Shown piece by piece: positions 43,559 to 48,442 of a stretch of 64,000 nucleotides of DNA. The notes under the pieces were generated by a model. That model was not told the origin of the DNA. It made no database searches and saw only the letters and a program-made list of their open reading frames with translations. Position numbers and translations under genes: made by a program. Source of the stretch: an uncultured archaeon. GTDB lineage: Archaea; Asgardarchaeota; Thorarchaeia; Thorarchaeales; Thorarchaeaceae. How positions within the stretch are numbered: position 1 is the stretch's first letter; each line of letters begins with the position of its first letter. The stretch lies in NCBI GenBank assembly GCA_964631415.1, contig CAZVZC010000001.1, positions 119,042 to 183,041 on the forward strand, written 5' to 3'.

Positions 43559-44341
43559 CTACCGGCCCCGAAGCCCCTCGCAGAAAGCCAACACATTCTT
43601 TCCTAGGTCCTGATGATTATAACCTCCTTCAAGTAGTCCGAAACGTCGTCCATCGCACTGACTCTCTGCGAAATCGTACATCAACCGACCTATCTTTCGG
43701 AATGCCTCTGTGGACAGGTTCTGTCCCCAACAATGCTCGTACTCGTCGAATCCCGCCGATGCAGCAATCATGTCCACGCTGGGGCATCCGTCCAGTGCAC
43801 TCTTGACGTCTGCCAAGTAATCGCCATCTCCATGTGCATGTGGGTTGTAGATGTGGAAGTCCTCCTCGCGTCCGAGGATGTCGATAGTGCCGTCTCCAAC
43901 GTGCAGGTCGAAGTCCAGTATGAGAGCGGACTTGATGATGTGTTTCGAACGTAGGTGGAGAAGGGCTACAGCCATGTTGTTGAAGTAACAGAATCCCCAG
44001 TAGTTGCGGGCAGAGGCGTGGTGGCCAGGTGGTCGAATCAACCCAAATGCCGGCTCCCCCATTGCGGCGAATTTGGCTGTCAGAATGGCACCGCCTGCTG
44101 CTAATGCGGCCATCTCGTAGACCCGTTTGGTGTTCGATGAGGCGTCTTCATCTTTCACTCTCTCCAATACGCATCGGTCGTGTGCGCGCAGCAGGTCCTC
44201 CTCAGGCGCATAGTCTGGCAGGATCAGGTCGTAATCAGAATTGTTATGGAATGCCTCGATTGCCGTATCGAGTCTCCCGGGTGCTCCCGCAGGCGTGTTG
44301 TCGTAAGACTCTCTCATGCGAGGATGGAACACTATCTCCAC
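43559..44341 (-). CDS. Histone deacetylase-family Zn amidohydrolase
   Basis: RPPGHHA, GFCYFNN, DFDLHVGDG, SAGFD, LEGGY. Confidence 0.93.
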   Translation of the reverse strand: MEIVFHPRMRESYDNTPAGAPGRLDTAIEAFHNNSDYDLILPDYAPEEDLLRAHDRCVLERVKDEDASSNTKRVYEMAALAAGGAILTAKFAAMGEPAFGLIRPPGHHASARNYWGFCYFNNMAVALLHLRSKHIIKSALILDFDLHVGDGTIDILGREEDFHIYNPHAHGDGDYLADVKSALDGCPSVDMIAASAGFDEYEHCWGQNLSTEAFRKIGRLMYDFAESQCDGRRFGLLEGGYNHQDLGKNVLAFCEGLRGR

Positions 44342-44583
44342 GGCTTGCCATCTCTTGAATACGTATGGAAACTATGCCATCTCTTTAGCCTTCATGGGGT
44401 GAGAAATACTCGGTCCTGAGTTCCTGCCTTAGCACCTGACGAGTAAGTTTGAGTCAACAAAAATCGTGTGAGAGCGCTAGCTCCTCTAATAGTCCTCACG
44501 GCTTGACTGGTCCGAGCCTTCCGGAACCTGTGCCGTGAATATAGGCGTCGTCGGTTCTCTCTGAATATAGCAGTGTGAGAAAT

Positions 44584-44628
44584 ACAAAAGACAGACTTGG
44601 ACAGACAGGCTCGCGACCTGCCTGCCCA
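44584..44628 (-). terminator. Stem-loop plus U-rich tract after the r-protein operon
   Basis: 13-bp stem TGGGCAGGCAGGT-CGCGA-GCCTGTCTGTCCA followed by GTCTTTTGT on the minus strand. Confidence 0.55.
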
Positions 44629-46692: not shown

Positions 46693-47205
46693 TCACCCCT
46701 CCCTTAAGGGCACATTGAGCTGGTTGTCCCACTTGCCATCTCTGATCTCTTGTTGGAACTCCTTGGCGGGCTTGCCCTCGATGGTCACGCCCATCGATAC
46801 GCACGTACCCGTAATTATCATTGCAGCCGACTTCATTGTCAGTGCAGTCAACTCTCCGGCCTTCATCTTGGCAATGGACTTGATTTGATCAATCGAAAGA
46901 TTGCCAACGATCTGAGTCTTCGGCGTTGCAGACCCCTTCGGAGCGCCTATTTCCTTGAGAATCAGTGCGCTTGTTGGAGGGATACCCACCTGCACCTCAA
47001 AGGTCTTGGTGACCGCATCCACGATTATTGTCACAGGCACCTTCAGCCCGGCAAAGGGCTGTGTGACTTCGTTAATCTTCTGTACTACTTGAAACACGTT
47101 CACACCAGTTGGTCCTAGGGCTGGTCCGATTGGTGGCCCTCCCGAGGCCTTACCGCCTTCGACCATAGTGGACACTTTGGTCTTCTGTTCACTCAAATGA
47201 ATCAC
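46693..47205 (-). CDS. rpl11: Ribosomal protein uL11
   Basis: GGKASGGPPIGPALG, PPTSAL, GTCVSMG; start uncertain. Confidence 0.96.
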   Translation of the reverse strand: MIHLSEQKTKVSTMVEGGKASGGPPIGPALGPTGVNVFQVVQKINEVTQPFAGLKVPVTIIVDAVTKTFEVQVGIPPTSALILKEIGAPKGSATPKTQIVGNLSIDQIKSIAKMKAGELTALTMKSAAMIITGTCVSMGVTIEGKPAKEFQQEIRDGKWDNQLNVPLREG

Positions 47206-47460: not shown

Positions 47461-48126
47461 TCAATGAGACCAGAATGAGTCCTCTTCCTCCTCAGGACTC
47501 GGAGTTTCAGCCTCCTCCTTCTCCTCTTTCTTCTCGGCAGCCTTCCCTTTCTCCACAATCTTGGCGAAATCGGCATGAACTCGCAAGGGGATGGTGTGTG
47601 GGCTGTCGAGCAGCTCGAGTATGAGTTCCTCCTTGGAAGTGTCCACTCTTGACACTCTGGCTCTTTCACCCTTGAATGGACCCGATATGATCTCGACAAC
47701 ATCACCTGTCGATATGCCTTCGGCCGCAGGTGGTGGGACAAGGAATTTGTCGATTTCTTCCAGACTCACTTTTCCACTAACACGACCCCGCACATGTGGC
47801 ACACCAGAAATGGCAATCTCGACATCCCTGAATTCAGTGGTTTCGAGAAACACATAACCACGGAGAGTTTCCGGGACTAGTATCGCCATGACCCTGCCAA
47901 GAAGCTGATTCTTCGACACCAGCTTTGGCTCGCCTTTCTTCTTACCTGCCTTCTTGCATTCTTTCATATGCTTGGTAGTGCTCTGTTCCGACGAGAACTG
48001 CTCACCACAGAACGGGCACTCCCACAGATCGGTTTCTCCCGTAACAGCAGTCGTAATCAGGTCTGCGACTGATCTCTCTTGGCTTATCGTTGTTCTTATG
48101 GCATAGATGCTGGTCTTCGCCTGCAA
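47461..48126 (-). CDS. spt5: Transcription elongation factor Spt5/NusG with inserted C2HC zinc finger
   Basis: NGN (YAIRTT..QE, LRGYVFLE), KOW (GDVVEIISGPFKGE), and position between secE and rpl11. Confidence 0.93.
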   Translation of the reverse strand: MQAKTSIYAIRTTISQERSVADLITTAVTGETDLWECPFCGEQFSSEQSTTKHMKECKKAGKKKGEPKLVSKNQLLGRVMAILVPETLRGYVFLETTEFRDVEIAISGVPHVRGRVSGKVSLEEIDKFLVPPPAAEGISTGDVVEIISGPFKGERARVSRVDTSKEELILELLDSPHTIPLRVHADFAKIVEKGKAAEKKEEKEEAETPSPEEEEDSFWSH

Positions 48127-48165: not shown

Positions 48166-48348
48166 CTACTGTCCCAACCACCCCGACGTCAGGGTTGTCA
48201 TCAGGACCTGCACTATGAAGCTGAGTAGTCCGACAAGTACCATTGCGAGCAGACTTATCTTTGTACTTGACCACATCTCACCTCTTGTTGGTTTCGTGGC
48301 AAGTTTCAAGATACGCCTGCTATCTCTGAGAAATTCTCCAACACCCAT
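48166..48348 (-). CDS. secE: Preprotein translocase SecE/Sec61-gamma
   Basis: RILKLATKPT.EMW plus TM; conserved synteny. Confidence 0.92.
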   Translation of the reverse strand: MGVGEFLRDSRRILKLATKPTRGEMWSSTKISLLAMVLVGLLSFIVQVLMTTLTSGWLGQ

Positions 48349-48442
48349 TGCTGTCGCACATCCTAGGGTGCTCTGTATCACCGGAAACAGCAGCAGTCAC
48401 CTGTGGTGCTCTTTTAACCCTTGCTGAGTGCCCAACCACATA

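Follow-up and report, generated by a model that had tools for sequence, protein, structure and literature searches.

Spt5/NusG is, to our knowledge, the sole transcription factor common to all cellular life. Archaeal Spt5 is usually a minimal protein of two domains. The canonical archaeal complex (TIGR00405), which has been solved for M. jannaschii (4ZN1, 3LPE), P. furiosus (3P8B, 8P2I) and T. kodakarensis (9BCT), consists of Spt5, with one NGN and one KOW domain, and Spt4, a separate Cys4 protein. The usual archaeal arrangement of the locus is ftsZ-secE-spt5-L11-L1 (PMC10833476). The upstream DNA leaves along Spt4, NGN and KOW1, which form an exit tunnel in eukaryotes, and the archaeal tunnel is predicted to be open (PMC6150629). 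Furthermore, the P. furiosus NGN residues H12, R64, H65 and R67 touch the upstream DNA and contribute to activity (PMC11162788).

Elaborated forms of this factor are known outside the Archaea. In eukaryotes, an insertion in the KOW1 domain of Spt5 closes the DNA-exit tunnel (PMC6150629). In Bacteria, NusG of Thermotoga maritima and Aquifex aeolicus (2XHC, 1M1G) contains domain II (DII), an extra, independently folding domain of 192 residues (aa 42-233) that lies inside the NGN domain and does not contain zinc. The DII of Thermotoga NusG binds dsDNA non-specifically at 0.04 uM, shows RNA polymerase subunit binding and has been modelled beside the upstream DNA (PMC5224480).

The Spt5 described here is encoded in a window of 64,000 nucleotides, the whole stretch of DNA that was analysed, from an archaeon of the Asgard family Thorarchaeaceae. 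It carries a putative zinc finger within its NGN domain. The relevant features are the following:

48166..48381 (-), secE, upstream neighbour (Pfam SecE, 5.7e-09)
47461..48126 (-), spt5, 221 aa plus stop, TTG start; a 95% identical relative (P0002) has M at the same position
48040..48111 (-), NGN strand 1 and helix 1, aa 6-29 (Pfam NGN positions 1-22; M. jannaschii Spt5 residues 2-22; modelled strand 6-12 and helix 17-30)
47911..48039 (-), family-specific insertion, aa 30-72, comprising finger, linker and return strand
47956..48024 (-), putative C2HC finger core, W35-C57, with C37, C40, H53 and C57 as presumed ligands and F44 in the core
47935..47955 (-), Lys-rich linker, aa 58-64
47911..47934 (-), return segment G-E-P-K-L-V-S-K, aa 65-72, with a predicted third strand at 68-71
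47734..47910 (-), rest of NGN, aa 73-131, with the predicted Spt4-pairing strand 2 (aa 79-86), E95 and the H111/R113 loop
47551..47715 (-), KOW domain, aa 138-192 (Pfam KOW; aligned to solved Spt5 KOW domains)
47464..47544 (-), acidic tail, predicted to be disordered (pLDDT <50), aa 195-221, ending D-S-F-W-S-H, with the F-W pair at 47470-47475
46693..47205 (-), ribosomal protein L11, downstream neighbour (Pfam Ribosomal_L11 and L11_N)

The encoded protein is almost certainly the single, functional Spt5 of this genome, and the anatomy given above, with a zinc-finger module, shares that degree of confidence. It scores well above the cut-off of TIGR00405, the NCBIfam Spt5 equivalog (145.4 vs 69.95 bits), and also above those of Pfam Spt5-NGN (PF03439, 62.2 vs 22.4 bits), whose match is broken into two stretches by the insertion, and of KOW (PF00467, 31 vs 22.3 bits), which is present as one C-terminal motif. 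Identity to solved archaeal Spt5 proteins amounts to 30-36%, and a structure search with the complete model matches solved Spt5 chains with an E of 3e-15. Like the canonical systems, the protein combines NGN and KOW, and its gene lies in the standard neighbourhood, the same-strand order at the locus being ftsZ, secE, spt5, L11 and L1. The reading frame, the translation and the acidic C-terminus, which reads EEEEDSFWSH, had been given correctly in the first-pass annotation, whose interval for the insertion (47890-48035) corresponds to residues ~31-79. Close relatives of the protein begin with M at the position of the TTG start. A second, finger-less Spt5 paralogue was considered and rejected, as a PF03439 search of the genome (85% complete) identifies spt5 as the only gene with an NGN domain.

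The insertion is located between NGN helix 1 and strand 2. In a phmmer alignment against the PDB, residues 2-22 of M. jannaschii Spt5 correspond to residues 7-27 of the query and residues 30-146 to residues 79-195, so that 51 query residues stand opposite 7, a net insertion of 44. This is close to the ~43 extra residues given in the first-pass annotation. The segment reads W35-E-C37-P-F-C40-G-E-Q-F44-...-H53-M-K-E-C57, followed by K-K-A-G-K-K-K-G-E-P, and the finger follows the pattern W-x-C-x2-C-x3-F-x8-H-x3-C. Profile matches and AlphaFold2 both agree with the original description of a bona fide Spt5 onto which a beta-beta-alpha C2HC finger is grafted between these two elements.

AlphaFold2, run on the full protein with a 130-sequence alignment, yields a model with a mean pLDDT of 82, and of 82-88 for the insertion. 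The predicted elements are two strands at 34-36 and 43-44 and a helix at 47-56, all three with a pLDDT of 82-91, and an extra strand at 68-71. The isolated insertion is predicted to adopt the same fold (pLDDT 83), and because strand 68-71 forms there as well, this third strand is considered part of the module. In the model it draws the two ends of the module together, as expected of an inserted domain. The sequence has the ligand spacing C-x2-C-x12-H-x3-(H/C) and the aromatic core of a beta-beta-alpha finger, and the model supplies its beta-hairpin and helix; we infer that the module binds zinc.

Among solved fingers, the family profile matches INSM1 (4.3e-6), B-129 of an archaeal virus (1e-4), a designed six-finger protein (1.2e-4) and ZBTB20, the C2H2 matches spanning 4.3e-6 to 1e-3, and it reaches a MYST finger at 0.038. 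The Pfam finger models stay below their cut-offs, with 18-21 vs 27 bits for zf-C2H2_4, 16.5-17.9 vs 27 bits for zf-C2HC_2 and 15.8-18.5 vs 25.2 bits for zf-C2H2. A Foldseek search with the isolated module, which is a very small domain, returned no significant match (best E 0.78); its top rows, none of them significant, are classical C2H2 and MYST C2HC fingers with 0.5-1.1 A rmsd over 24-25 residues. The module resembles classical C2H2/C2HC fingers (INSM1, 2LV2; B-129, 2WBT; MYST, 1M36/6BA4) in the spacing aromatic-x-C-x2-C-x3-F-x8-H-x3-ligand and in its predicted fold. However, it differs from classical C2H2 fingers in being a single finger inside another domain and in using Cys as its last ligand, in having Thr in place of the core Leu, in its unconserved base-contact positions and in the Glu at the phosphate-contact position. 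The source of the finger was also looked for within the genome, where no second copy of the module was found and the best other C2H2 match has an E of 0.055.

The spacing C-x2-C-x12-H-x3-C is common to UBZ4-type fingers as well, and weak matches to the UBZ fingers of SLX4 (E 0.11), FAAP20 (E 0.71) and WRNIP1 (Foldseek rank 37) could point to the finger as a reader of ubiquitin, or of some ubiquitin-like protein, in the Asgard host. Such a function is highly improbable, since classical C2H2 fingers score far better than these matches and the helix Asp that contacts ubiquitin is absent, the corresponding positions being variable. The lack of this Asp had been noticed from the single sequence, and it extends to the family, in which the C-terminal part of the helix reads H-M-(K/S/G)-x-C.

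Spt5 with the module is found in 84 of 85 family genomes (species representatives), all full-length bar one gene that is split over two contig ends. The best 120 database clusters are all Thorarchaeal Spt5 proteins, of 220-241 residues and 73-95% identity, and 116 of them contain the exact finger motif. A chance pattern or an assembly artefact was rejected on the basis of this count and of the full-length matches across the independent assemblies of the family. With a profile of the insertion only, 74 of 76 sampled family genomes are matched (E 1e-8 to 1e-31), and 224 other Asgard genomes gave no strong match, the weak ones (E at least 4.9e-4) being to unrelated ORFs in six genomes. The sister family, from the same order and represented by a single genome (G025; L021), has an Spt5 that is matched only from residue 76 on and shows the short canonical loop, and the canonical spacing is also found in 13 other Asgard genomes. 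Among the Asgard lineages sampled, the comparison of Spt5 proteins that had been proposed as a check confines the insertion to the Thorarchaeaceae. The distance between R-T-T-x-G-Q-E and G-Y-V-F was further compared in 150 representatives at 50% identity, drawn from 1.8 billion proteins. It is ~36 residues in most of them, and 80 solely in two Thorarchaeal representatives. Papers found on the Spt5 of Asgard archaea or Thorarchaeota do not describe the insertion, and neither does a 2026 survey that covers elongation-factor domains in 218 Asgard proteomes.

The same helix 1-strand 2 loop holds unrelated insertions of 45-150 residues in other archaeal Spt5 proteins (P0136, P0125, P0223, P0231, P0242, P0157, P0268). 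These include a second KOW/SH3-like domain (P0136), helical segments (P0125, P0223) and large domains (P0157, P0268). Because other archaeal lineages have such insertions there, the loop is regarded as a permissive site, and to judge from these alignments it is an insertion hot spot of archaeal Spt5. The segment of P0231 at this loop contains Cys and His residues.

Conservation was assessed in 26 distinct family sequences that represent all 16 sampled genera. C37, P38, C40, F44 and H53 are invariant, and W35, C57, D33 and P67 each occur in 25 of the 26. Loss of the Cys and His residues in relatives, which the first-pass annotation had named as grounds for refuting a finger, is therefore not what is seen, with three presumed ligands invariant and the fourth kept in 25 of 26 genomes. 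In the return segment, P67 is accompanied by L69 (23/26) and S71 (24/26), and the core Leu position of the classical finger is Thr in 22/26. The helix positions that read DNA in classical fingers (-1, 2, 3 and 6; aa 46, 48, 49 and 52) differ between sequences and are often acidic, and in 22/26 genomes Glu occupies the strand position at which Lys or Arg is the norm. The net charge of the finger proper ranges from -4 to +2. For the linker, the closest 116 clusters give +2 to +7; genus g12 has an acidic linker, and that of g11, g14 and g16 is close to neutral. The lysine patch noted earlier is accordingly a real feature of this protein, but it does not hold for the family as a whole.

By these comparisons, the fold core of the module is conserved and its surface is not. 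Canonical zinc-finger DNA reading is unlikely because the contact positions are variable and often acidic and because several genera lack the Lys run; non-specific DNA contacts by the module are possible. In one genus (g11; L059, G013) the fourth Cys is replaced by Glu with the remaining finger kept, and the same replacement occurs in the protein P0104. These fingers could be three-ligand or degenerate forms.

Within genera, dN/dS where dS is unsaturated is 0.03-0.15 for the insertion, against 0.004-0.02 for the NGN/KOW core, as estimated from few codons, and dN is 3-10 times greater in the insertion than in the core. These rates indicate that the module is under purifying selection and is constrained less than the NGN/KOW core. 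The module could be structural or nearly neutral, i.e. a self-folding zinc module that is tolerated at a permissive loop and at most stabilises the Spt4/5 heterodimer. The raised dN, the restriction of conservation to the fold core and the unrelated insertions at the same loop of other archaeal Spt5 proteins would all be in line with this. It is nevertheless considered unlikely: the module is kept in every genus of the family with its ligands intact, save the fourth in one genus, dN/dS is low, and 44 residues without use in an essential factor would presumably have degenerated or vanished in some lineages.

The partner protein is retained. Spt4 (PF06093) is encoded on another contig of this genome (G000 C37 17837-18037 (+); locus L041:301-501) and was detected in 24 of 24 family genomes searched, which rules out the finger as an Spt4 replacement. 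The earlier suggestion of an altered Spt4 dependence fails in that sense, the canonical strand-strand interface being predicted as well. In all Thorarchaeal sequences, however, Spt4 differs from its homologues by an 8-residue loop insertion with the consensus P-G-R-D-P-H-E, ahead of the conserved D-P-x-x-S-x-I-A; this insertion is found in none of seven others (the sister family, five other Asgard lineages and one methanogen-type). It is positioned directly after the Spt5-pairing strand, and the length of the Spt4 match is 198-201 nt in 24/24 family genomes vs 174-186 nt elsewhere.

A complex of Spt5 residues 1-135 with Spt4 was predicted with a score of 0.69 vs 0.01 for the best control, a contact agreement of at least 88% between runs and a partner pLDDT of at least 82. 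Of 80 solved complexes, 58 reach this mark, as do 2 of 110 mismatched pairs; a pass denotes likeness, not binding, and may reflect the solved Spt4/5 complexes already known to the predictor. In the model, Spt5 79-86 runs antiparallel to Spt4 29-38, the same predicted strand-strand interface as in the canonical complexes, and E95 contacts Spt4 49-50. The flanks of the insertion (28-29 and 76-77) belong to the predicted interface, in keeping with the original remark that the insertion is close to the Spt4-binding face. The contacts also include Spt4 36-38 and 44, at the edges of the Spt4 loop. Since the Spt5 flanks and these Spt4 residues are both among the predicted contacts, the model has the Spt5 finger and the Spt4 loop insertion emerge at the same corner of the heterodimer. 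The confident contacts name the flanks and not the finger itself, which for this tool signifies uncertainty, not absence.

A further family-specific element is found at the C-terminus of Spt5. F218 and W219 are present in 26/26 family genomes and DSFW in 119 of the 120 clusters; the ending is D-S-F-W in most genera and G-G-F-W in genus g12. The acidic F-W tail is absent from the sister family (L021), and several other Asgard Spt5 proteins (e.g. L025, L031, P0125) have acidic tails with different aromatic endings. Taken together with the 44-residue module and the 8-residue Spt4 insertion, the tail sets the Thorarchaeal complex apart from the sister family and from the solved archaeal Spt4/5 complexes. 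An acidic tail with an invariant F-W pair resembles a short linear motif. Mimicry of the ribosomal stalk tail was considered and dismissed, as the aP1 protein encoded in the window ends in the dissimilar G-L-G-S-L-F-G. The genome gave no sign of a shared C-terminal motif family, one other ORF having an acidic tail that ends in two aromatic/Leu residues. This ORF, on contig C2 (G000, 44188-44601 (+)), is small and Cys-rich, with several C-x2-C-like pairs and a very long polyacidic tail ending D-D-D-W-L.

Many single beta-beta-alpha fingers bind proteins, and the finger, alone or with the Spt4 loop, could be a docking module for the surface of RNA polymerase or for a lineage-specific factor recruited to the elongating polymerase. 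The neutral to acidic finger with Glu at its phosphate-contact position fits a protein better than DNA, the Spt4 loop insertion co-occurs at the same corner, and the gain of the invariant acidic F-W tail indicates that Spt5 was remodelled at several points in the family. However, the exposed face of the helix varies among genera, as would not be expected if it bound a single conserved protein; the genes next to spt5 are standard and yielded no candidate partner. In addition, no family-specific indels of at least 3 residues were found in Rpo2 (10 genomes) or Rpo1N (8 genomes) when 4 family genomes were compared with 4-6 other Asgard genomes. Docking of this kind is possible, though doubtful.

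The reading that is tentatively preferred, at somewhat less than an even chance, is that of a rigid add-on that touches DNA or the elongation complex without sequence specificity; both the DNA contact and the orientation of the module in the complex are conjectural parts of it. A zinc-stabilised module of 43-44 residues would have been spliced into the helix 1-strand 2 loop of NGN at the origin of the Thorarchaeaceae. It would project from the Spt4-docking corner of NGN, at which the 8-residue extension of the Spt4 loop co-occurs, and would enlarge the Spt4/5 cap over the RNA polymerase cleft as a rigid structural element. It is viewed as a rigid structural add-on because its fold core is conserved and its surface is not. 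The most likely action of such an element would be non-sequence-specific contact with upstream DNA or with the elongation complex, through the basic linker in most genera. The DNA-contacting residues H65 and R67 of P. furiosus align with H111 and R113 here. However, the RRM-like topology of NGN would, by reasoning rather than computation, put the loop that carries the insertion at one end of the sheet and the loops that contact DNA in P. furiosus at the other. Judging from the alignments, the DNA-contact positions of the finger are furthermore unconserved, the finger is acidic in many cases, and g12, g11, g14 and g16 have an acidic or near-neutral linker in place of the Lys run, which likewise argues against this mechanism.

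The best functional analogy is offered by NusG DII, which shares with the Thorarchaeal module the character of an extra, independently folding domain inside NGN. DII differs in its far greater size, its bacterial origin and its lack of zinc, and the two have no similarity in sequence or fold: 2XHC and 1M1G were matched through NGN/KOW alone, and the insertion profile finds no NusG chain among the solved chains. The site of insertion presumably differs as well, as DII, judged by E. coli NusG, is probably part of the strand 2-strand 3 hairpin. The eukaryotic KOW1 insertion likewise elaborates Spt4/5 in one lineage and on the side of the cleft where the upstream DNA lies, and the role of the Thorarchaeal finger may be analogous. 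It differs from the finger in belonging to another domain (KOW1, not NGN), in its fold and in its independent origin.

A broader, decidedly unlikely proposal is that the finger, the extended Spt4 loop and the F-W tail form one coordinated, family-specific remodelling, which would create a DSIF-like platform with a DNA-exit or chromatin-facing element and a factor-recruiting motif. If true, this would be an independent archaeal parallel to the elaboration of eukaryotic Spt5 by its KOW1 insertion, acidic regions and C-terminal repeat region.

Irrespective of mechanism, a whole Asgard family has a eukaryote-style finger in the polymerase-binding domain of Spt5, an altered Spt4 corner and a new tail motif, and a core elongation factor was being elaborated in Archaea. 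The Thorarchaeal complex offers a compact natural system for the role of extra modules of the Spt4/5 cap in DNA-exit control, complex stability and factor recruitment. As the other Asgard lineages sampled lack the feature, which occurs in a single family, the picture of eukaryogenesis is unchanged. New in this analysis are the co-occurring Spt4 insertion, the pattern of conservation that speaks against canonical DNA reading, the exceptions in g11 and g12, the dN/dS values, the lack of family-specific indels in the polymerase subunits compared, the invariant F-W tail and the hot spot at the NGN loop.

The comparisons also brought up observations outside the module. Many archaeal Spt5 proteins (e.g. 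P0168, P0210, P0228, P0258) extend N-terminally of NGN by 130-250 residues, and a motif of approximately C-P-x-G-A-R-Y-G-D recurs in this extension. Among the polymerase genes of two other Asgard genomes, the rpoB and rpoA1 ORFs of G036 (L068), of 1660 and 1420 aa, and the rpoA1 ORF of G031 (L067), of 1303 aa, are much longer than those of their relatives, and inteins are a likely cause of these long frames.
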